Source: a virus (taxonomy: Duplodnaviria; Heunggongvirae; Uroviricota; Caudoviricetes). From it: DNA of 64,000 bases. Below, piece by piece: positions 2,987 to 63,990 of the stretch. Below the pieces are notes generated by a model that had not been told where the DNA came from, did no database searches, and was given only the letters and a program-made list of their open reading frames with translations. A program made the translations under genes and the position numbers. The stretch lies in the IMG/VR virus record IMGVR_UViG_3300012348_000120; one strand, 5' to 3'. Position 1 is the stretch's first letter. Each line of letters starts with the position of its first letter.

Positions 2987-3194
2987 CCACATTCGGCTCA
3001 AGACGGAAAAACCACGAGTTTTTGTTTTCGGAAAACTTCGCAAGCACACGCTCACCGCAATGACGATAAGTGTTCATCAAACGAAGGCAAGCGAGTTCGG
3101 AACCAAAGGCATATAGCGTTCCACCAATTTCTTCAACCTCAAGATTTTCTTTTGCATGGATTTCAAACTCACGCTTGGCACGGAAAAGGTTCAT
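2982..3194 (-). CDS. hypothetical protein
   Basis: ATG preceded by cctgtaaccaagagagaggaaaccag. Confidence 0.5.
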   Translation of the reverse strand: MNLFRAKREFEIHAKENLEVEEIGGTLYAFGSELACLRLMNTYRHCGERVLAKFSENKNSWFFRLEPNVA

Positions 3195-3210
3195 CTGGTT
3201 TCCTCTCTCT

Positions 3211-3252
3211 TGGTTACAGATTACTTATATAGTGATTCGTATGGAATGTCAA
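3211..3252 (-). promoter_or_regulatory. early promoter plus leader (copy)
   Basis: gene-sense TTGACA-ttccatacgaatcac-TATATAagtaatctgtaacc. Confidence 0.6.
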
Positions 3253-5436: not shown

Positions 5437-6546
5437 TTAGACGATTTCATATTTGTTCATCACATATGTGATGAGTGGGGTTACGATGAGAAGGACAATC
5501 AGTGCCAAGACAAATGCCCAAGTTGGCGGAACAATGTCGTTTGACAGGTATTCAAAAGCATCCATTGATTGGAGTTTATAGTCACTCCGAATCACATTCT
5601 CAATATAGGCATTGATAGTGTCAATGTCAAGAACTTTCGCATCATAAATTGCATCACGGATTTTAACATTTACGATACTATCAGAACTCCAACTACGAAC
5701 ATCTACCCAAGATACTTTGTCATCAGACATGCCAACAACAACAATCACATCGTTGATATTATGAGCATCCCAAGATTGCGCAAGTTGTTCTGCAAAGTTT
5801 TGCGTTTTACTGGTTACTACTACAATTACGTTTGCACCAGTTTTCATAACATTTGAGTTTAGAACAGAAAGTTTCTTATTCCACTCTGCTTTCATAGTGG
5901 CTGACATAGCATAATCAACTGTGATCACACGATCAGTCTTATAAAAATCATAGATTTTTGGATATGAGATTGATGGTAGTTCTTCTGGTTTCAGGCGTTT
6001 ATTGAAAAGACTTGCTGATGCACCACGAATATAGTTGGTGTATGAGACTTGACCAGACACAGGATCACCAACTTTCACTTCTGCAAAACGAGGTGGCGTA
6101 TTTACACCTTGGGCATCAACACGAGAAACCTCATACGTGTCAATTGTTGAGGTAATAAAGTAGCGGCGTTCCCAAGGATATACTGAACGGTATTGTGTTT
6201 TGTATTTTGGTGTGCAAGTCCGCTTATCATTTATAGTAGTGCAAGTTTGGCCATCACGGACTCGACGAGTATTTTGGTTTGTGCAAAAACTATCTGGCCA
6301 ATCACTCCAATATTGATCACATGATTTCTTACGTGGATCAAGTTCTGTCACCACGCCATTTACAAACTTAACATCACTTGTCTGTGATCCAACGCCAGTG
6401 AGGAATACCAGAAATATGATGAGACTTGTTGCGAAAAACTGAATCGCAATTTCACCCCAAGTAATATTCATATGAAGAAATATCTTGGCGATACCAATCC
6501 ATACAATAAGAGGAAGAATGAATAGAAATGCATAGTATATGGTCAT
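5437..6546 (-). CDS. membrane protein with two N-terminal TM helices and a Cys-rich extracytoplasmic domain
   Basis: 369-aa ORF; promoter TTGACA-N17-TATATG just upstream at 6560-6605. Confidence 0.55.
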   Translation of the reverse strand: MTIYYAFLFILPLIVWIGIAKIFLHMNITWGEIAIQFFATSLIIFLVFLTGVGSQTSDVKFVNGVVTELDPRKKSCDQYWSDWPDSFCTNQNTRRVRDGQTCTTINDKRTCTPKYKTQYRSVYPWERRYFITSTIDTYEVSRVDAQGVNTPPRFAEVKVGDPVSGQVSYTNYIRGASASLFNKRLKPEELPSISYPKIYDFYKTDRVITVDYAMSATMKAEWNKKLSVLNSNVMKTGANVIVVVTSKTQNFAEQLAQSWDAHNINDVIVVVGMSDDKVSWVDVRSWSSDSIVNVKIRDAIYDAKVLDIDTINAYIENVIRSDYKLQSMDAFEYLSNDIVPPTWAFVLALIVLLIVTPLITYVMNKYEIV

Positions 6547-6559
6547 GTATCACCTATTG

Positions 6560-6605
6560 ATCGATTACGAATCCATACATATACTATACAGATAAATTTG
6601 TCAAG
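6560..6605 (-). promoter_or_regulatory. early promoter (variant) for CDS 5437..6546
   Basis: gene-sense TTGACAaatttatctgtatagTATATGtatggattcgtaatcg. Confidence 0.5.
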
Positions 6606-6609
6606 TGTT

Positions 6610-7168
6610 TTTTTCATACAGATACTTACTTTGTAAGTATCAAATTATTATAGATATTCATTCCTCGCTATCACTTCGTCATTCATATCTATAATAATTC
6701 TTTTAGTTATGATATTATTTTGAATATCATTTCCAGAGCCAAGATACACTTTGCCTTCAGGCTGGCAAGCGTGTATCTATGGGGAAATCTTTTCCGTCAC
6801 ACTGATACTTCATACAGAACAACCTTATAATGTCAGGTTATGGTGGTCACGCGGTGCCATTTTACGTTCTAACTTATTATGACGCAGACATGCTATAGCA
6901 GTATGAATTACATTAGCAGTCTTGCAAGTTTCCGAGGTGTCGTGAAGAGCTTGCTCATTTTCAAGTGGTCATCTTGATACATAAACGAACTCAGGCATCG
7001 GTAAAATGCCTGAGCACACATTGTTACTATATCTATTCGCATAGTGGTTTATTACTACCGAAAACGTAACAGAGGATATATCCTCATTATTTGTGTTATG
7101 GGTTTTACTACCTTTATATGACAGGTATTACCTGACCTTATTAGAGTATCATAGACTCCATGATTCGG
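6610..7168. other. roughly 560-bp ORF-free, hairpin-dense intergenic region; candidate structured ncRNA(s) or origin
   Basis: no ORF of 60 aa or more on either strand; several perfect palindromes or hairpins (6621-6641, 6648-6693, 6751-6787, 6993-7017, 7071-7084, 7123-7135). Confidence 0.4.
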
Positions 7169-7417
7169 TCAACATACTACTTTATCAAAATATGCTTTTA
7201 GTTCTGTGAATCCACCAATGTGATTTCCATCTACCCAGATTTGAGGATATGTTCTTGGCGTATATCCAGCTTTTTCACACTCTATAAGCATGTTTTCTTT
7301 TGCCCCATCTACAAACTCAACGTTCAATTCTTCATACTGAACGCCACGAATTTGCAATAGTGTTTTCGCTTGAATGCAATAACTGCATCCATTTTTTGTG
7401 TATATTTTTGCTTTCAT
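7169..7417 (-). CDS. nrdC: glutaredoxin (T4 NrdC-like)
   Basis: 82 aa with CxYC active site (NGCSYCIQAK) and a thioredoxin fold. Confidence 0.8.
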   Translation of the reverse strand: MKAKIYTKNGCSYCIQAKTLLQIRGVQYEELNVEFVDGAKENMLIECEKAGYTPRTYPQIWVDGNHIGGFTELKAYFDKVVC

Positions 7418-8624: not shown

Positions 8625-9797
8625 TTACATTTTTGTTGTTGTGGACTCGTATGTCCGATTGTATTGATTATTTACTCGAATAAATGTTGTGCATTTACTG
8701 AGTTGTTTCAGAGTTGGTGCGCCAACATATGTGCAAGTTGATCGTATTCCTCCGAGAATGGTTTGAACCGTAGATGAAACATTTCCACGATACGGAACTA
8801 ATACTTCCCTGCCTTCACTTGCCCGATAGTCCTTGAGGCCACCAAAGTGTTTTTCATTTGCAGCATCAGAACTCATACCATAGAACTGAACAAACTTCTT
8901 TTCTTTAACAACTGGAATATATGCCCTGTATTCTTCTGGGCGTCCAGTATTTGTATATTCACCCGTGGCATACCATTTACTTATGATTTCGCCGCCGCCT
9001 TCATCATGGCCAGCAAGCATTCCACCGAGCATCACAAAATCGGCCCCTGCTGCAAAAGCCTTTGCAACATCACCAGCACAGACACAACCGCCATCAGCAA
9101 TAATATGTCCCCCAAGACCATGAGCGGCATCAGCACATTCGATGATGGCCGATAGTTGAGGATAACCAACCCCAGTTTGTATACGAGTAGTGCACACGCT
9201 GCCAGGGCCAATCCCAACTTTAACAATATCGGCTCCATTTAGAATTAACTCCTGTGTTTGATCTGCGGTTACAACGTTTCCTGCAATGATCACGATGTTT
9301 GGATAAATTTTACGAATGTTTTTCACATGCTCAACAAAATGCTGACTGTATCCATTCGCAACATCAATGCACAAGTATTTCAGCTTTTCCCCAACTCTGG
9401 CATAGACTTGAACAAATTTATCATAGTCGGAATTGCTAATGCCAATACTCATCGCTACATGTTGAGTTATACGTTCAATGTTTTGTGAAAAGAACTCAAC
9501 AAGTTCTTCCTTAGAATATGTCTTGACCAAGCAAGTAAATATGCCTTGACTGGACAGAACGTCTGCCATTTTAAATGTTCCAACGCCATCCATGTTTGCT
9601 GCCATAATCGGAACTCCCTTGTATTGAGAGTAGTGACGATCAAACACTTCATTCATAGTTTCGTTTGGACTTGAAACATAGTTTCGAAACGTATACGACC
9701 GTTCCAGACTTACATCTGAACGGCTTTTGAGTGTGCTTCGTTTTGGACGAATTAGAACATCACTATAATCAAGTAACACTTCATTTTCTATACGCAT
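8625..9797 (-). CDS. guaC: GMP reductase (IMPDH/GuaC family)
   Basis: N-terminus [29 protein letters not shown] is near-identical to bacterial GuaC; catalytic-Cys loop [11 protein letters not shown]. Confidence 0.85.
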
Positions 9798-9999
9798 TCT
9801 TATTCCTATTTTTTACGTGTTGTTTTATAAATTCAACAGGAACATTAGGATTTAAATTGACCAATTCCTGTTCAGTATATGTTTCTGGTTTGCGAACACC
9901 GAACTTGTCGAATTGTTCGTAAGCCCAATCTGTTAAATCTTTTTTGTCTTTGAAAATCATTAGTATTTTCCATGTAATAAAGGGTGGGACGTTGCCCAC
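9781..9999 (-). CDS. hypothetical protein
   Basis: 72-aa ORF. Confidence 0.45.
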
Positions 10000-10006
10000 C
10001 CTTATT

Positions 10007-10279
10007 TTACTTACCGAGAATTTGTTTGAATTCTGTCAGGGTGTCGGCATCAACTAAGTCACTTCGGTAGAGTGCGTATCGTTTTGTGTTGCCATTATAT
10101 ACACCTACTTCGGTCACATCCCCACGATCATTGGTAGAAATCATGCCGTATAGATTTTCCTTGCCGCGAAACTGCTTTGCCAGTTTAATCGCTTCATCAA
10201 GAGAAGGAGTCCGAGAACGCCGCTGGTTTGATTGATTTGATTGAGGGCGACGATTCTTCTGATTAGTTTGGTTTGTCAT
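10007..10279 (-). CDS. hypothetical basic protein
   Basis: 90-aa ORF with RBS gaggaaaat before the ATG; preceded by an unusually long (about 300 nt) leader. Confidence 0.5.
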   Translation of the reverse strand: MTNQTNQKNRRPQSNQSNQRRSRTPSLDEAIKLAKQFRGKENLYGMISTNDRGDVTEVGVYNGNTKRYALYRSDLVDADTLTEFKQILGK

Positions 10280-10371
10280 ATTTTCCTCATATTGACAAAT
10301 TTAAAAAAGAGAAAGTTTTCAACTTGAGGTGAAGCATTTCTCATTACGGCTTCACCGATTAATTAATAAGA

Positions 10372-10530
10372 ATAACGATGACGGTTACATGACACCTACT
10401 CCAAGTGGAGGTTGAAGGTTAGTTTTTTGTTTTACGAGCAGCATTCCCATTATTCGGCGCTCATCATACTAAATTAGTCTCATATATCTATTAGTCAGTC
10501 ATAACATTAAGATGTAACCGTCATCGTCGC
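10372..10530. repeat. perfect 15-bp inverted repeat (CGATGACGGTTACAT / ATGTAACCGTCATCG) separated by about 120 bp, inside a 300-nt untranslated leader
   Basis: read directly: 10376-10390 and 10512-10526 are exact reverse complements; no ORF between them. Confidence 0.6.
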
Positions 10531-10564
10531 ATTTTGTTCTCCACGGTCAAGTTCTTGTTTCTGA

Positions 10565-10603
10565 TGTATTATTTATATCAGATTCGTGTCAAAGTGTCAA
10601 GAC
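10565..10603 (-). promoter_or_regulatory. early promoter with duplicated -35-like TGTCAA boxes
   Basis: gattcgtgtcaaagtgtcaagac; TTGACA occurs twice 9 bp apart. Confidence 0.45.
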
Positions 10604-11134
10604 TTATTCACTATCTTTGTAGAAAATATGATTGTCAATCACTTTCGTTTCTACGAAGTCTGAACTCCAATACGGATTTACGTAATCCGCATGATACATT
10701 GTTGCTCCACCAGTTGGGTCTGGAATTTGCCCATATGTATGGATTGCAACTTCTGCAACGAATTGTGCAAGCATCCAAGATGTTTTATCTTTTGGTTTGT
10801 CAGACATTCCGTCTTCTGTCCAAGAGAATTGGCCATCTTGCCAAACTACTTCACATACGCTTTTTGGGTAATTTTCATTTGTAACCCGATTGAGTGTCAC
10901 CCAAGCAACTGCCCGTTGCCCAAGAAACGATTGATTTCGTGCTTCAAAATAAATATTTTTTGCAAGACAATCTGTTTGTTTTTCAATATTCACTTGTTGA
11001 ATTTCGTTGTCGATAGACTTGGCCATAGCCACACGTCTTTCCGACTCTGCTTTTACCTCATGAACTCCGAGACCCGCAAGTCCTATTGCTACAGTAGCAT
11101 TCATGAGAAACGCTGCAAGGTTTAACCTTTTCAT
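10604..11134 (-). CDS. SleB-family cell-wall hydrolase with N-terminal signal or SAR-like segment (endolysin candidate)
   Basis: Hydrolase_2-like core (CLAKNIYFEARNQS...VAWVTLNRV...YPKSVCEVVWQDGQFSW); Gly/Ala-rich weakly hydrophobic N-terminus LAAFLMNATVAIGLAGLG. Confidence 0.75.
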   Translation of the reverse strand: MKRLNLAAFLMNATVAIGLAGLGVHEVKAESERRVAMAKSIDNEIQQVNIEKQTDCLAKNIYFEARNQSFLGQRAVAWVTLNRVTNENYPKSVCEVVWQDGQFSWTEDGMSDKPKDKTSWMLAQFVAEVAIHTYGQIPDPTGGATMYHADYVNPYWSSDFVETKVIDNHIFYKDSE

Positions 11135-11201: not shown

Positions 11202-11744
11202 TTATGCGAAAATTTTCAATATTTCGAGTTCTATATAATCTTTGTTTCGTTCAATATAAGCAACATCACCGATGGAACATCCTAATAGTTCTTTTCCAAC
11301 TGGTGATTTATGACTTATAACGCCCTCAGATGGATTACTTTCCATCTCTCCAAGGATTGTGTATGTTATAATTTTGTCAGTTGATAAGTTTTTCACAGTC
11401 ACACTAAGCCCAACTTCGACCTTACTATATTCCCCCTTTTTTTTCGCTGGTATGATAGTATATGTTTCTGCTACGATTTGGAGTTTTGCAATCTCCATAT
11501 CTAATCTCATCATTTCTTCCAGCGCCATAGAGAATTCTTCATTTTCTTCTATGCCGCCGTTTTCTCTGGCATCTTTAAGTTGCTCAGAAATTAGTGGTTT
11601 CTTTTTGGAAAGGATTTGAATCTTTTCCAAAATTTGTTTTCTTCCCTGTTCGGTAATAATGTCCCCACTCACTTCGTAGTATTCCTTGTTATTATTGTTG
11701 TGGTTATATTTATCGAAAACCACAAATGAAAGAGCATTATTCAC
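11202..11744 (-). CDS. GreA/GreB-family transcript-cleavage-factor-like protein
   Basis: coiled-coil N-domain with acidic tip plus C-terminal FKBP-like domain (VEVGLSVTVKNLSTDKIITYTILGE...SPVGKELLGCSIGDV). Confidence 0.65.
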   Translation of the reverse strand: MNNALSFVVFDKYNHNNNNKEYYEVSGDIITEQGRKQILEKIQILSKKKPLISEQLKDARENGGIEENEEFSMALEEMMRLDMEIAKLQIVAETYTIIPAKKKGEYSKVEVGLSVTVKNLSTDKIITYTILGEMESNPSEGVISHKSPVGKELLGCSIGDVAYIERNKDYIELEILKIFA

Positions 11745-27240: not shown

Positions 27241-27468
27241 TCAGATTTCGCCGTTCAGACCTACATAGACCGCAATGGTTTTGATGTCATGCTCACGAAA
27301 GCCTTCCATCGCAAGACAGTTGCGAAGATATTTCAACAGTCGTTCTTCGTCCGCTTTGATTTGCGGCATCTGATTTTCAAGCGTGTTCCAAATGGAGAAC
27401 GACTTCCAAGGTTTCAGAAACCCAGAAGTGAAGCTATTGCAGAACGATTCAAAACGACGATAGTCCAT
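27241..27468 (-). CDS. hypothetical protein
   Basis: 75-aa ORF directly after a promoter cassette. Confidence 0.5.
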   Translation of the reverse strand: MDYRRFESFCNSFTSGFLKPWKSFSIWNTLENQMPQIKADEERLLKYLRNCLAMEGFREHDIKTIAVYVGLNGEI

Positions 27469-27483
27469 ATCTTCACCTCTCTT

Positions 27484-27525
27484 GGTTACAGATTATGTAT
27501 ACAGTGATTCGTATGAAATGTCAAG
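27484..27525 (-). promoter_or_regulatory. early promoter plus leader (copy)
   Basis: gene-sense TTGACAtttcatacgaatcacTGTATAcataatctgtaacc. Confidence 0.6.
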
Positions 27526-33976: not shown

Positions 33977-36643
33977 TTAAAACCTTTTTGTAAGTGTGAA
34001 ACCAATCTGTGGTGCAGTTTCACCGTCAATGCCCATATAGTTTTCGCGAACTTCTGCAAACATAGACACATTTGTAGTAGGTGTTACATCTACGTTATAA
34101 AACAGACCAAGATTTACTTCTCGGCTATTGTTCGCAAGAGATTCCGACGAAGTAGCGGAAGACACAATTCCCTCTGCACTTACGGATGATGCGTATTCCA
34201 TACTTACGTCACCAGATTGAATTGCTACGGGCAATGCAGCAACAATACCAAAATTTCCATTTCTGGTATTGAATTTTGCTCCAACACTCGCAGTGTTGCT
34301 GATCATTGTGCCAGCACTTTTCATCATAGAATTTTCTCCAACGTTTAGATCAGTAGCACCAACACCGATACTTCCGAACAAAGAACCAGACGAAGTTTGG
34401 ACTTCATGCTTCAGATTTACATAGGTAGTGGTTGCGCCCGTTACATTCATAATTGGACTGGTTGCCACATTTCCAAGGAATGATCCATCTTCTTTCATAA
34501 CACCAAATGTTACAAAGTCGTTGTTATATGAAACCCCATAGTTTGTGCCATCGTCATTAGCTGATACTGCAAAGTTTCCAACATTGATATTGAGTCCCTT
34601 TGTATAGCCAAGATAATTGTCCGCATTTGAATTGTATGATGCGGCAAGAACTGGACTCACCATACGAGTATCAGTCGCAATATTTAGTTTGTTGCCATCC
34701 ATATAAAAGTTTCGGTCATATTCATCTACCACCATCATACTTGACAGTGAAGCCATATTCATACCAGAAACCGATAGCTGTCCATCAATAGATGTAGTTG
34801 CACCATCAACCCGCCCAGTAGTTGGAATACCAATCGCACCCTGTGGACTTGTTGCATTGTCAAGGTCCATAAGTCCTTGTCCATGAATGTTTACATCATA
34901 ACCAGAAAATGATTTGTCAGCAGTATTCATTAGCAACTTTACAACATTCTCGCCAGTCATATATGGCCACATTTGATGAACAAGTGCAACGCCACCAGAA
35001 ATAGCAGGAGCAGCCATTGAAGTTCCACTCAATGCACGATAGTCGCCGTTATTGTTGGTAGAAGTCACCCAAGTCCCTGGTGCCATTAGGTAGTAATCAC
35101 TAATACGGTTTGTATTGTTACAATCGTTTGTGACTGCATTGTAATCAAAGCACATTGTTCCAGCACGGTTGGAGTAGGATGCAATGTTATTGGTGCCAAG
35201 ATCAAATGAACCAGCGATGATTACACGACCATCCAGCGCAAGGTTTCCACTTTCGTCTGTGATAGTTGCATAATGTGCAGGGAAAGCAGGAAATGCCAAG
35301 CCTTGGTTTCCAGCAGCAACAACCAGAACGGTGTCATTTCCACTCATTGCAGTAATAACTGGTGCCGTGAAATTGTCGCTGTTTAGGAGTTGGTTATATC
35401 CAAGAGACTGATATGGAGCATATGTGCTGCGATAGAACCCATCACCAATTGATACTACGCTGTTGCGATAGGTAGAGTCCATATTCATTTCTGCACTTAC
35501 GTTTACAACATCAGCACCGTTTGATACTGCCCAAGCGATGCCATTGCCAACTTGGTCAAGTTCAACGTATCCATTATCATGGCTGATTTTACCAACCAGA
35601 ATATCAGCATCGGGTGCAACACCAGTCATACCCACTCCATCAAGTGCGGCAGCAGCAATACCAGTAACATGTGTGCCATGTGCTACTGAGTTTTTGTCCT
35701 GAATCGTTTCATAGCCATTCTTGCACATCACAGTGAAACATTTGGTTCCGACAATACGACCATCAAACTCTTGATGATCCAAATCAATACCAGTGTCCAG
35801 AATTGCGATAGTTGAGCCAGCACCAGTATATCCGCGACTCCAAGCAACGTTTGCGCCAGTAGCAGGAAGCCAGTTGGCATATGGTCCAAGCCCACTTGGA
35901 TTTAGAATTGTATTAGTTGTGTAATATGGATTCGTAACTTTTACCGCATCAATATACGTCTGTGTCCCTGCAAGGCTTACGTCCGTTCTTGTCGCATATT
36001 CTTCTGCGGTCAAGAATTCAGATTGGCTCGCGTGTGTATTTTGCACAGAACTTACCAACACTCTACCCGATGTTTGCGTCTCAGAGATTGACGAAGAAGT
36101 TGAAATTACGTTTGATGCTGTATTTGTTTTTGTTGTTCCATCACTGTAATACTCAGTGGTAATTTTGGTTTCAACAACTTGAATCGTAGTTGTGGTTTGA
36201 TAATACTTTACCGTAACCTCATATGTATCGGTTGTAGTGTCAGTGTTTACAACTTCGGTTGTTTTAGTTGTATTTACGAGAACTGGATCAGAAACCGTTG
36301 TATTTGTATTTTGTGTAGAAGTTGATGCAGTGTTGATAACTGTCGGTGTGAGAGGATTTGAAACACCCAACAGAATAGCAAACTTTGCAACATCTTCCTT
36401 ATACATTACAACTTTCGCTTCCAACGATTCGTAACTTGCAGTGCCATCTAACCGCTTGTATGCATCAAGATAGGCAGAATAGGTTTTGATATAACCCAAG
36501 TATTGAGTCATATATCTTTGAGCAAGAGTTGTCTGTGTTGTTTTGTTTTTGATGCTTGCGATTGAATCGTAAACTGCACCAGCATACACTGGTGAGACGA
36601 CTGCGAACATAGAAATCAAAAAAGCGAACAGAAAGTTTTTCAT
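33977..36643 (-). CDS. secreted subtilisin-like serine protease (S8) with Thr-rich linker and autotransporter-like C-terminal beta-domain
   Basis: signal peptide; catalytic triad motifs DTGID, HGTHVTG, GTSMAAPAISG; about 330-aa C-terminal region of alternating residues ending in ...FTLTKRF. Confidence 0.75.
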   Translation of the reverse strand: MKNFLFAFLISMFAVVSPVYAGAVYDSIASIKNKTTQTTLAQRYMTQYLGYIKTYSAYLDAYKRLDGTASYESLEAKVVMYKEDVAKFAILLGVSNPLTPTVINTASTSTQNTNTTVSDPVLVNTTKTTEVVNTDTTTDTYEVTVKYYQTTTTIQVVETKITTEYYSDGTTKTNTASNVISTSSSISETQTSGRVLVSSVQNTHASQSEFLTAEEYATRTDVSLAGTQTYIDAVKVTNPYYTTNTILNPSGLGPYANWLPATGANVAWSRGYTGAGSTIAILDTGIDLDHQEFDGRIVGTKCFTVMCKNGYETIQDKNSVAHGTHVTGIAAAALDGVGMTGVAPDADILVGKISHDNGYVELDQVGNGIAWAVSNGADVVNVSAEMNMDSTYRNSVVSIGDGFYRSTYAPYQSLGYNQLLNSDNFTAPVITAMSGNDTVLVVAAGNQGLAFPAFPAHYATITDESGNLALDGRVIIAGSFDLGTNNIASYSNRAGTMCFDYNAVTNDCNNTNRISDYYLMAPGTWVTSTNNNGDYRALSGTSMAAPAISGGVALVHQMWPYMTGENVVKLLMNTADKSFSGYDVNIHGQGLMDLDNATSPQGAIGIPTTGRVDGATTSIDGQLSVSGMNMASLSSMMVVDEYDRNFYMDGNKLNIATDTRMVSPVLAASYNSNADNYLGYTKGLNINVGNFAVSANDDGTNYGVSYNNDFVTFGVMKEDGSFLGNVATSPIMNVTGATTTYVNLKHEVQTSSGSLFGSIGVGATDLNVGENSMMKSAGTMISNTASVGAKFNTRNGNFGIVAALPVAIQSGDVSMEYASSVSAEGIVSSATSSESLANNSREVNLGLFYNVDVTPTTNVSMFAEVRENYMGIDGETAPQIGFTLTKRF

Positions 36644-44680: not shown

Positions 44681-44995
44681 TCAGGCACCCATCTTTTTAA
44701 GAGCAGTAAGAACACGTTTGGAACCACCCGATTTGTTCATCTTGAACATGCGGCTGGACATTGCAGACATTGCACCGATGCCACCACCATCAGTCCCCCA
44801 CACCGAACCAGCAGACGTGGAAGGCAGAAGTCCAAGAATGCTGTAATATTCCATATCAGCACGGCAGAAGGCTTCACGGTCATTGATGCCATCTTTGTAG
44901 ATGGTCAGAATGGAACCACGGACAGTAACGTCCCAACCAAGTTCTTTGGCGGTGTCAAGGATTTTCTTGGCGGTTTCAGTGGCGTTCACAGTCAT
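44681..44995 (-). CDS. hypothetical protein
   Basis: 104-aa ORF directly after a promoter cassette; RBS aaggagagataa. Confidence 0.5.
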   Translation of the reverse strand: MTVNATETAKKILDTAKELGWDVTVRGSILTIYKDGINDREAFCRADMEYYSILGLLPSTSAGSVWGTDGGGIGAMSAMSSRMFKMNKSGGSKRVLTALKKMGA

Positions 44996-45005
44996 TTATC
45001 TCTCC

Positions 45006-45050
45006 TTGCTGACTACTCTATTCTTATAGCGTGATTCGTTCAGTTTGTCA
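45006..45050 (-). promoter_or_regulatory. early promoter (copy)
   Basis: gene-sense TTGACAaactgaacgaatcacgcTATAAGaatagag. Confidence 0.55.
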
Positions 45051-45054
45051 ACTA

Positions 45055-45273
45055 TTAGATTGATTGGACTTTGTAAAATAGTCGAACCAACCCAACAAAC
45101 TCACAATAAACTTCTTCCAGTCCACCAGAGTGGCGACGATCATAAGCCTCGGACCAAAGGAATGAAGCCTGTGCTTCTGAAACAATGTCTTTGTATTCAT
45201 GAAAGACGCATTCAGTAAGGACGGCTTCATCATCAGTGCGGTATTCATGAAAGGAGCGATATTCAGGAAGCAT
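45055..45273 (-). CDS. hypothetical protein
   Basis: 72-aa ORF. Confidence 0.45.
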   Translation of the reverse strand: MLPEYRSFHEYRTDDEAVLTECVFHEYKDIVSEAQASFLWSEAYDRRHSGGLEEVYCEFVGLVRLFYKVQSI

Positions 45274-45294
45274 TTGTTTTCCTTTATTTGCGTT

Positions 45295-45335
45295 ATGTAG
45301 TCAATCTATACTGATTCTTTCAGTTTGTCAACTCA
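45295..45335 (-). promoter_or_regulatory. early promoter (copy)
   Basis: gene-sense TTGACAaactgaaagaatcagTATAGAttgac. Confidence 0.5.
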
Positions 45336-62202: not shown

Positions 62203-62451
62203 TTACTCAAAGTAAACATGAAGGTTGCGATAGGTGGCGTTTTCGCCAGCAAGAAGAACAGACCCGTCAATAATATCGCCACCATACCCAGTTTCTTTCA
62301 TCGACTCTTCGTCATAAGCGATGGTGACTTGAATGTCGCTGCCATACTTCACACGAGTCTTGGTGATGTAACCAAGAAACGGCACATCATTCTTATAACC
62401 AGTGACAACCGAACCTTCAGCATTGTAAAGGGCGTTCATGAAGCTGTTCAT
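62203..62451 (-). CDS. hypothetical protein, paralog of CDS 63156..63359
   Basis: shared motif TRVKYGSDIQVT versus SRVKYGGKVQHT. Confidence 0.5.
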   Translation of the reverse strand: MNSFMNALYNAEGSVVTGYKNDVPFLGYITKTRVKYGSDIQVTIAYDEESMKETGYGGDIIDGSVLLAGENATYRNLHVYFE

Positions 62452-62467
62452 CGTGTTTCCTCTCTCT

Positions 62468-62511
62468 TGGCTACAGATTATGTATACAGCGATTCGTATG
62501 GAAAGTCAAGC
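62468..62511 (-). promoter_or_regulatory. early promoter plus leader (copy)
   Basis: gene-sense TTGACTttccatacgaatcgcTGTATAcataatctgtagcc. Confidence 0.6.
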
Positions 62512-62748: not shown

Positions 62749-63090
62749 TTAGTCCAGCCGCGACCCCGCCCACACATCCAGATCAGTCAGTTCACGCATC
62801 TTTGCAGCATAGGCAGCGGCCCCTGCTTCTTTGATGTCAATGTTCTGGCCAGGATATTTGGAGGGGTTCCACAGTTCCCACGATTTGCCAGTCCAGTCTT
62901 TGCGGAAGCCAATCGATTCAAGGAGTTTACGTTCAGCGCGGCCACCTTTGGTGTTACCTTTTTCTTTGGGCGTGACTTTCACCCAAGCAAAACCGCACAT
63001 ACCGAAGTCACCGCCCCACTGTTTCAGTGCAGCATCCGAAGCGGCTTTTGCTTCGTCAAGAGCGAGAGAGTGAACGAGTTGAATATCCAT
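62749..63090 (-). CDS. hypothetical protein
   Basis: 113-aa ORF after a promoter cassette. Confidence 0.5.
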   Translation of the reverse strand: MDIQLVHSLALDEAKAASDAALKQWGGDFGMCGFAWVKVTPKEKGNTKGGRAERKLLESIGFRKDWTGKSWELWNPSKYPGQNIDIKEAGAAAYAAKMRELTDLDVWAGSRLD

Positions 63091-63105
63091 TGGAAGTCCC
63101 TTTCT

Positions 63106-63150
63106 ATTGGCTACATTGTATGTATATAGTGATTCGTTCAGAAAGTCAAG
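63106..63150 (-). promoter_or_regulatory. early promoter plus leader (copy)
   Basis: gene-sense TTGACTttctgaacgaatcacTATATAcatacaatgtagcc. Confidence 0.6.
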
Positions 63151-63372: not shown

Positions 63373-63582
63373 TTAGCAGAAGCCAAACGCAGAAAGACCA
63401 AGCCGAATGAATTTGTCAGCAGCGTCTTTTGCAAACTCTTCAGTTTTCAGAAACATCGTGGTCATCAGTTGTTTACCTTCGTAAAGTTCAACAACCCAAG
63501 TCGTCTTGGTGACGAACCCATCATAATCACCGTAGCACACATCAACATCAATGAGTTCGGGAGTGATAGTCACGTTACGCAT
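63373..63582 (-). CDS. hypothetical protein
   Basis: 69-aa ORF after a promoter cassette. Confidence 0.45.
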   Translation of the reverse strand: MRNVTITPELIDVDVCYGDYDGFVTKTTWVVELYEGKQLMTTMFLKTEEFAKDAADKFIRLGLSAFGFC

Positions 63583-63595
63583 CTGATTTCCTCTC

Positions 63596-63640
63596 TTGGT
63601 TACAGGATATGTATATAGTGATTCGTCTTGAATGTCAAGA
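63596..63640 (-). promoter_or_regulatory. early promoter plus leader (canonical copy)
   Basis: gene-sense TTGACAttcaagacgaatcacTATATAcatatcctgtaaccaagagaggaaatcagATG. Confidence 0.65.
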
Positions 63641-63644
63641 CATT

Positions 63645-63932
63645 TTACACACGAATTTTGTTTACATTCCGAATTTCTTCGTCGTGTTCTTTCACAATCA
63701 TGGAAGAAGGATAGTAAAACCGACGAGAACCAAGACCATCAACCTCAGTGGGATAGTCTTTGGCGGGCAAGTAGCAGAACCCGTTGTAGTTGCCAGACTC
63801 ATGGAGAACAGCTTCAATGAACGAAGCAACACCTTCCCGTTCATCGGCTGACGTATTTTTTGCGGCAAGAAAGTGATTTGCCATACGCAGAATTTTACCA
63901 ACTTCAATCGTTTTACGAGCGGGTTTCGTCAT
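63645..63932 (-). CDS. hypothetical protein
   Basis: 95-aa ORF. Confidence 0.45.
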   Translation of the reverse strand: MTKPARKTIEVGKILRMANHFLAAKNTSADEREGVASFIEAVLHESGNYNGFCYLPAKDYPTEVDGLGSRRFYYPSSMIVKEHDEEIRNVNKIRV

Positions 63933-63944
63933 CTGTCTCTCCTT

Positions 63945-63990
63945 GCTGACTACATGATATGTATATAGTGATTCGTTAGGATTGTCAAAT
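63945..63990 (-). promoter_or_regulatory. early promoter plus leader (copy)
   Basis: gene-sense TTGACAatcctaacgaatcacTATATAcatatcatgtagtcagcaaggagagac. Confidence 0.6.

Follow-up and report, generated by a model that had tools for sequence, protein, structure and literature searches.

The N gene of phage lambda is reached from its early promoter through a leader (pL - nutL - RNase III-sensitive structure - N) whose structure limits translation initiation. The early RNase III sites of T7 (R0.3, R0.5, R1.1 and others) are compact hairpins of ~20-25 bp with an internal loop, while the T4 gene 32 leader combines a pseudoknot, an unstructured tract and the ribosome-binding site (RBS) in autogenous translational control. 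The mycobacteriophage MPME, in turn, are phage miniature inverted-repeat elements. The locus described here lies in IMG/VR record IMGVR_UViG_3300012348_000120, of which a stretch of 64,000 nucleotides (nt), referred to as the window, was analysed. It comprises a ~286-nt untranslated leader, with a perfect 16-bp inverted repeat, in front of a gene for a 90-amino-acid (90-aa) protein on the minus strand. We lean towards reading this region as a new lineage-specific, cis-acting structured 5′ leader RNA in which the repeat would act as the closing helix. Among the four candidates offered by the initial annotation (riboregulator or thermosensor, RNase III processing site, insertion resembling a miniature inverted-repeat transposable element (MITE), palindromic operator pair), the riboregulator class fits best, in view of the blockwise purifying selection on the leader and of a covarying hairpin with U·G pairs proper to the sense strand.

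The source of the window is an uncultured marine jumbo phage of ~356 kb, since a near-twin with 99% identity lies on a 356-kb NCBI metagenome-assembled contig and further relatives are found on marine metagenome contigs of 150-369 kb. Relatives of the locus came from protein-guided searches of IMG/VR and of metagenomes (31 loci) and from exact-protein look-up (12 contigs). The long leader is restricted to a single clade with eight distinct sequences, namely the window, L060 (the 99% twin), L029, L062, L064, L065, L070 and L035. Protein identity to the window is 86-99% in the first six of these relatives and 73% in L035; the window and those six are hereafter the seven clade members, with L035 as a distant eighth. 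At ~25 further orthologous loci (58-64% protein identity), the stop codon of the upstream hydrolase gene and the ATG of the 90-aa gene are 82-84 nt apart (83-84 in nearly all), with a leader of ~35 nt. The initial annotation had taken absence or lack of conservation in relatives as evidence against a functional leader: the region is indeed absent from these distant loci, with their 83-84-nt gaps, but within the clade this is contradicted by strong conservation. Other loci carry longer leaders of unrelated sequence at the same site, one of ~190 nt that is weakly structured (z = -0.6) in L059 (368,898-bp contig; L059:2250-2455) and others of ~110 nt in L053 and L057 (~2360-2444). Because these three lengthened independently, the site between transcription start and RBS seems prone to gaining sequence.

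The main evidence for function comes from the pattern of divergence along the leader, which was divided into the following parts, given in the order of transcription.

10528-10565, minus strand: leader 5′ end, A-rich and mostly unpaired; conserved in the clade, with 5-16% divergence against 34-40% at 4-fold degenerate sites
10512-10527, minus strand: 5′ arm of the repeat in the transcript (ACGAUGACGGUUACAU), the variable arm among relatives
10463-10511, minus strand: interior of the clamped domain, 5′ half; specific to the clade, unmatched in L035 and with indels in L062 and L070
10436-10462, minus strand: 27-nt core (GAGCGCCGAAUAAUGGGAAUGCUGCUC), nearly invariant, with a predicted 7+2-bp hairpin that includes two G·U pairs
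10391-10435, minus strand: A-rich linker and a small variable hairpin (CCUCCACUUGGAG region), with a conserved UC preceding the 3′ arm
10375-10390, minus strand: 3′ arm of the repeat (AUGUAACCGUCAUCGU), including a UGUAAC motif
10357-10374, minus strand: AU-rich linker evolving at a neutral rate
10328-10356, minus strand: hairpin 2, with an 8-bp stem (GGUGAAGC/GCUUCACC) and the conserved loop AAYGAGAAAU
10309-10314, minus strand: invariant UUUCUC tract, complementary to GAGAAA in the hairpin-2 loop (10337-10342) and to the Shine-Dalgarno sequence GAGGAA
10272-10299, minus strand: start hairpin (UUUGUCAAUAU-GAGGAAA-AUAUGACAAA), with the Shine-Dalgarno sequence in the loop and the AUG (10279-10277) in the 3′ arm

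As a neutral yardstick, 4-fold degenerate sites in four flanking genes were compared between the window and each relative, giving divergences of 0.34-0.37 for L029, L062, L064 and L065, 0.40 for L070 and 0.55 for L035. Against this background, the core block 10391-10462 differs from the window by only 0.01-0.06 in the close members other than L060 (P 1e-9 to 1e-12), by 0.15 in L070 and by 0.31 in L035, with binomial P values of 1e-5 to 1e-12 over all comparisons. The 27-nt core within this block is identical in 7 of the 8 leaders, its sole change being a C-to-A substitution in L035 despite the 55% 4-fold divergence of that relative. The core sequence is unique in the window and in IMG/VR, and is absent from 185,579 bacterial and archaeal genomes. 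The 3′ arm shows no difference at 14-16 positions in the seven clade members, while the linker 10357-10374, at 0.17-0.50, is no different from 4-fold sites. The leader is under blockwise purifying selection on its nucleotide sequence rather than being a product of recent transfer, because conserved and neutral blocks are interleaved. The pairing register of the small variable hairpin in 10391-10435 is not settled.

This selection acts on a non-coding element. No minus-strand open reading frame (ORF) of at least 25 aa is present in the leader, and in none of the related contigs did gene callers predict a gene at this place, so that the description of the leader as untranslated holds, a small ORF having been named as what might otherwise account for the spacing. 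Two shorter frames were rejected as conserved peptides: a 22-codon upstream ORF (ATGAGAAAT...), whose ATG is ACG in L029, L062, L064, L070 and L035, and a 21-codon ORF that starts in the core and is shortened to 7 codons in L035. A hidden peptide is unlikely, because the conserved blocks are invariant at all three codon positions and the mini-ORFs are not conserved. As a separate observation, the 22-codon ORF (AUGAGAAAU..., 10277-10345, minus strand) starts in the hairpin-2 loop, and its UGA overlaps the main AUG (AUGA). It is found only in the window and L060, and is probably incidental since its start is ACG in the six other leader variants.

Support for selection at the level of RNA structure is provided by hairpin 2. 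The initial annotation had noticed a local hairpin, which is real and consists of GGTGAAGC (10328-10335) and GCTTCACC (10349-10356). Its stem forms in every variant, being re-formed as UGUUAGGC/GCCUGACG in L064 and L065 and as UGUAAAGC/GCUUUACA in L070, and three positions are altered on both sides. The U·G pairs that occur among these variants fit the sense strand only, as the other strand would give A-C mismatches.

Folding of the minus-strand transcript gave a minimum-free-energy structure of -74 kcal/mol for the leader (z = -4.8), in which the repeat helix forms and closes a 153-nt domain (z = -4.1), in line with the earlier proposal that the repeat clamps the leader. This repeat had been described as 15 bp long with arms 120 nt apart; it is perfect and real, but measures 16 bp, with ACGATGACGGTTACAT at 10375-10390, its reverse complement at 10512-10527 and 121 nt between the arms, and one extra G·U pair would lengthen the RNA helix to 17 bp. 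It is the sole perfect inverted repeat of at least 16 nt within 400 nt in the 64-kb window, and a repeat of that length arose in 1% of 200 first-order Markov simulated windows (mean 0.015 per window). All seven clade members keep the helix, at lengths of 11-17 bp: it measures 16-17 bp in the window, L060 and L029, 12 bp in L070 and 11 bp in L062, while L065 and L064 both have 14 bp, with a U-C mismatch in L064 (whose sequence is present on four contigs). It is absent from L035, the most distant of the long-leader relatives. Apart from the outer two pairs lost in L064 and L065, all arm changes fall on the 5′ side. The 5′ arm is intact in L029, L060 and L065, has one mismatch in L064, has lost its inner 4-5 nt in L062 and L070 and is absent from L035, while the first 14 nt of the 3′ arm (AUGUAACCGUCAUC) are invariant in 7 of 7 clade members, the last two nt being missing in L064 and L065. 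Even L035 keeps 11 of the 15 aligned positions of the 3′ arm.

A long helix in the leader of an early transcript might also serve as an RNase III processing site, in which case cleavage would remove the 5′ part of the leader and alter translation or stability. Such a role would suit a perfect helix of 16 bp (17 with G·U) at this position, of which at least the outer 11 bp are kept in all 7 clade members. Typical substrates, however, span about two helical turns (~20 bp or more), a length that this helix does not reach, and it shrinks to 11-14 bp or acquires a mismatch in L062, L064, L065 and L070 and disappears in L035; moreover, conservation peaks in the single-stranded or hairpin core and not in the helix. 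The RNase III candidate of the initial annotation is weakened by a helix that measures 16-17 bp here and 11-14 bp in relatives, and stays in play as an unlikely one.

Recognition of the arms and core as double-stranded DNA would make the region an operator or looping pair, a replication origin or a packaging site. In keeping with this idea, the region is single-copy, non-coding and highly conserved, its inverted repeat is flanked by AT-rich sequence, the arms stand 137 bp apart centre to centre (~13 helical turns), and the repeat itself shows no covariation. On the other hand, the two copies evolve unequally, with an invariant 3′ copy and a 5′ copy that is missing or worn away from the inner end, and neither arm is palindromic. 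The U·G pairs of hairpin 2 and of the predicted core hairpin are found in sense-strand RNA alone, the cumulative GC skew has no inflection at the leader, and the element sits within the transcription unit, between promoter and RBS. A DNA-level site is improbable, and the palindromic operator pair in particular was rejected on account of the invariant 3′ copy and the eroded or absent 5′ copy in relatives.

The L035 sequence also bears on the history of the repeat. In this relative, an 11-bp GC hairpin at the transcription start stands in place of the leader 5′ end (10528-10565), the 5′ arm and the interior's 5′ half, yet it retains the core, AUGUAAC, hairpin 2, UUUCUC and the start hairpin. For this reason, the perfect repeat appears to be a derived, clade-specific clamp on an older module. 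Conservation reaches deeper than the repeat in two parts that the initial annotation had missed, namely the 27-nt core (10436-10462) and the module formed by hairpin 2, UUUCUC and the start hairpin. However striking, the perfect repeat is thus secondary and specific to one lineage, whereas the RNA that carries it is conserved more deeply.

The same comparison argues against a MITE-like or other decaying mobile insertion between promoter and gene. Perfect terminal inverted repeats of 16 bp that enclose 121 nt of non-coding sequence do suggest such an element, as does its presence in one clade and absence from ~25 orthologous loci. There is, however, no target-site duplication, the flanks ...AAGAATA (left) and CGCATTT... 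(right) sharing no direct repeat, and no further copy in the window, related loci, IMG/VR or bacterial genomes. The gap in L035 extends from ~35 nt beyond the 5′ arm to ~50 nt within the element, and so does not follow the repeat ends; the extra leader of ~250 nt exceeds the 153-nt element, and the interior is under strong purifying selection. With a single copy, no target-site duplication and indel borders in L035 that lie off the repeat ends, the MITE-like insertion was rejected as highly improbable. In IMG/VR, both arms or the core were found at the orthologous locus only, and pattern searches with the arms, core and hairpin 2 otherwise returned chance matches.

The region downstream of the clamped domain contains elements that might act on ribosome access. 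The start hairpin is kept in all ~30 relatives, with long and short leaders alike; it reads UUGUCAU...AUGACAA in all short-leader relatives, and a U·G pair is tolerated where the codon is GCA. RNAalifold predicted pairing of GAGAAA with UUUCUC in 8 of 8 sequences, so that hairpin 2 and the UUUCUC tract might form an H-type pseudoknot whose loops would measure 6, 1 and 13 nt; covariation is impossible here because both sides are invariant. In the minimum-free-energy fold computed without the coding sequence, the UUUCUC tract pairs with the Shine-Dalgarno region instead. Two other pairings were rejected for lack of conservation, namely that of the 5′ GUGGAG with an interior CUCCAC, which is not conserved in L064 and L070, and the AACUUGA/UCAAGUU pairing of the window's minimum-free-energy fold, which is not conserved in L029.

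Put together, the structured-leader reading would run as follows. A stand-alone early transcription unit would consist of the promoter, the ~286-nt leader, the 90-aa gene and a 3′ hairpin. Within the leader, the 16-bp repeat would close a folded domain of 153 nt around the nearly invariant 27-nt core, followed by a putative expression platform made up of the covarying hairpin 2 with its GAGAAA loop, the UUUCUC tract and the AUG-burying hairpin. UUUCUC could pair alternatively with the hairpin-2 loop or with the Shine-Dalgarno GAGGAA, and output of the small protein would most likely be set via ribosome access, mRNA stability or both. The core may respond to a bound factor, either a protein or a small molecule.

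A bolder form of this idea, which is conceivable though doubtful, would make the leader a new class of phage regulatory RNA with the core as a sensor that flips UUUCUC between the hairpin-2 loop and the Shine-Dalgarno sequence. The core, held by the long-range helix, would bind either a small molecule or a protein of phage or host origin, of which the basic 90-aa product is one possibility. With UUUCUC on the hairpin-2 loop, the pseudoknot would form and leave the RBS open, while pairing with the Shine-Dalgarno sequence would close it, giving a riboswitch-like or autoregulatory switch confined to one clade of marine jumbo phages.

The core and the U-rich tract that follows the 3′ arm (UAUUCUUAUU in the window; UAUUUUUAG in L062) are also what a leader-derived small RNA or attenuator might be expected to show. 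Here, most transcripts from the promoter would terminate or be processed past the repeat helix and its U-rich tail, a stable RNA of ~190 nt would act in trans, and read-through would feed the gene; the near invariance of 27 nt points to a functional RNA more than to a simple spacer. Yet a helix enclosing 121 nt is no canonical intrinsic terminator, a scan of the leader's minus strand for such terminators came back empty, and hairpin 2 stands 20 nt from the T-run. The U-tract itself lies in the neutrally drifting linker; it is poor in two relatives (L064, L070) and not preceded by a stem in L035. No complementary target was found in the window. We consider this explanation quite unlikely.

Several points weigh against the structured leader with the repeat as its closing helix. 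No compensatory change was found in the repeat helix among clade members, with 94% of cells paired, nor in the core hairpin. As arm variation is one-sided and the 3′ arm is kept without its partner, arm conservation could reflect a constraint on sequence and not on pairing; a mid-helix mismatch is tolerated in L064 and the 5′ arm is wholly missing in L035. Fold z-scores are weak in several relatives, and the sense strand is not clearly favoured over the antisense strand. Sampling amounts to eight distinct sequences from one clade only, and the leader must be dispensable for the basic function of the gene because most relatives carry the gene without it. In sum, the evidence for function is solid and the distribution narrow.

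Two further observations concern motifs in the conserved blocks. The inner part of the 3′ arm (AUGUAACC) matches the UGUAAC motif found a few nt 5′ of the Shine-Dalgarno sequence in the window's short-leader cassettes and in short-leader orthologues (AAAUGUAACUUGUCAU, around position 2970-2990 of L030-L056); because the 3′ arm carries UGUAAC, the 5′ arm would sequester a leader motif that is common in this phage. A promoter internal to the leader, at UGUAACC in the 3′ arm, was rejected, since neither strand has a -10 or -35 element upstream of it. The segment UGCUCGUAAAACAA (10433-10446, minus strand), within and just past the core, is only loosely like the rrn boxA antitermination element (UGCUCUUUAACAA); the part after UGCUC is not conserved in L035.

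The promoter of the unit could be assigned with confidence.

10572-10600, minus strand: strong sigma-70-type early promoter, with the -35 element TTGACA at 10600-10595 and the -10 element TATAAA at 10577-10572

Its 17-nt spacer bears the phage-typical motif CGAATCTG, and the promoter call is well founded because this motif recurs in at least 10 promoter-leader cassettes of the window. The cassette CTTGACA...CGAATC(A/T)...TATA, which 10572-10600 matches, occurs in at least 10 copies on the minus strand of the window, and the strict pattern (CTTGACA, N8-9, CGAATC(A/T), N2-3, TATA-type -10) gave 5 matches against 0.27 expected. In all relatives, the promoter holds the homologous position right after the hydrolase stop codon, and no other promoter was found near the 90-aa gene. 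Both TGTCAA boxes that had been described in it exist (plus strand, 10587-10592 and 10595-10600), but they are spaced 8 bp start to start, not 9, and only one is conserved: the second TTGACA (10592-10587) is private to the window and its 99% twin, relatives keeping the 10595-10600 copy alone. With transcription predicted to start at ~10565, ~286 nt precede the ATG at 10279-10277, which agrees with the gene having been placed about 300 nt from its promoter (-35/-10 at 10572-10600, ATG at 10279). As leaders at the other cassettes are only ~20-35 nt long, the leader of 286 nt stands apart within its own genome.

The cassettes themselves form a family of ~64-nt elements on the minus strand, with members at 1525-1588, 1769-1832, 2922-2985, 3189-3252, 27461-27524 and 44991-45054, and further ones at 45268-45331, 62446-62509, 63086-63149, 63575-63638 and 63925-63988. 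They cluster at both window ends and follow the consensus CTTGACA-N8-ACGAATCAC-TATATACATA-N3-TGTAACCAAGAGAGAGGAAA-N4-ATG, in which a conserved spacer motif (CGAATCAC) and a UGUAAC box stand out. We take them to resemble the PeSL mobile regulatory cassettes of T4-type phages.

The genes around the gap all lie on the minus strand, as do almost all long ORFs in the phage-like gene layout of the window (GC ~40%).

11202-11744, minus strand: GreA/GreB-like gene, two genes upstream of the 90-aa gene
10604-11134, minus strand: cell-wall hydrolase gene (PF07486), directly upstream of the gap
10280-10603, minus strand: gap without a called ORF, holding the leader
10007-10279, minus strand: gene for the 90-aa protein, whose N-terminus is basic and disordered and followed by an alpha-beta3-alpha domain
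9980-10003, minus strand: GC-rich 3′ hairpin directly after the stop codon, a terminator or stabiliser
9781-9963, minus strand: ~60-aa ORF between the 90-aa gene and the GMP-reductase gene
8625-9797, minus strand: gene of the GMP-reductase/IMPDH family

For the 90-aa protein, AlphaFold gave a confident alpha-beta3-alpha domain after the basic disordered tail (predicted local distance difference test score, pLDDT, 78.5). The protein belongs to no Pfam or PHROG family and showed no structural match to double-stranded RNA-binding domain folds. A strong hairpin right after the stop codon of its gene is present in all relatives. It reads AAGGGUGGGC-loop-(G)CCCACCCUU in the long-leader clade, while the short-leader clade (L030-L057) has a different, two-tier hairpin whose inner stem covaries (CCUAACCGGUUAG / CCUUACCGGUAAG / CCUAGCCGGCUAG). 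Because the unit that starts at the promoter is closed by a hairpin after the stop codon in every relative, the 90-aa gene is a self-contained transcription unit. Next to it, the ~60-aa ORF (9781-9963) is missing from L062, L063, L070 and L071, a presence/absence polymorphism beside the leader locus.

Database searches with the region returned little. Among 50,697 GenBank phage records, neither the region nor the 90-aa protein had a nucleotide or protein match (megablast, blastn, tblastn). An Rfam 15 scan gave no relevant match at the gathering threshold over the window, where it detected three tRNAs at 163-634, and no meaningful match at E <=10 in 10200-10700; a description of the leader element was not found in a full-text literature search.

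Elsewhere in the window, a second perfect inverted repeat (6643-6657 / 6685-6699; 15 bp, AT-rich, AATTATTATAGATAT, with 27 nt between the arms) sits in a gap of 623 nt without an ORF of at least 80 aa (6546-7169). The segment 20743-21808 comprises more than 1 kb without an ORF of at least 80 aa on either strand and has no Rfam match at the gathering threshold. An 888-aa protein (33977-36643) gave distant subtilase-domain matches only, with ~26-30% identity over ~35% of the query and mostly to Bacillus phages (tblastn).

Gene regulation in uncultured jumbo phages is almost unknown, and the leader offers a case of clear selection on a non-coding element, parts of which diverge ~6-30x less than neighbouring silent sites among close clade relatives. 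Since one clade has gained it within a promoter-gene cassette that is otherwise standard, it also provides a natural comparison with and without the leader. If the core proves to be a sensor, a phage-specific class of regulatory RNA will have been gained; if the leader is only a stability or processing element, it will be an ordinary but well-documented example.

Compared with the systems described at the outset, the likeness to the mycobacteriophage MPME lies in a short non-coding unit between inverted repeats with presence/absence among related phages. In contrast to MPME, the unit is single-copy, has no target duplication and an interior under selection, and the indel borders lie off the repeat ends. 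Riboswitches and Rfam cis-regulatory leaders share with it a conserved core followed by a putative platform with mutually exclusive Shine-Dalgarno pairings, which here exist on paper only; it differs from them in having no Rfam match at E <=10, in core helices without covariation (seen in hairpin 2 only) and in its confinement to one gene of one phage clade. Like the T7 sites, it would place a double-stranded RNA element between promoter or genes and the next RBS in an early phage transcript, although its helix of 16 bp encloses a 121-nt multi-branch domain and measures 11-14 bp in relatives. The T4 gene 32 leader likewise has a structured element followed by a pyrimidine- or A-U-rich tract to the RBS of a small, probably abundant early protein, whereas the pseudoknot proposed here consists of the complementarity of invariant hexamers only. 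From the lambda N leader, the locus differs in having no identified boxA/boxB, a shorter helix, many orthologues without the leader (most of them) and a 90-aa protein with a folded alpha/beta domain and no similarity to N. The two nevertheless have in common an early promoter, a structured leader of more than 200 nt with a long-range closing pairing and a small basic protein. By these analogies, the leader appears to belong to a familiar category, the structured 5′ leaders of phage early genes.

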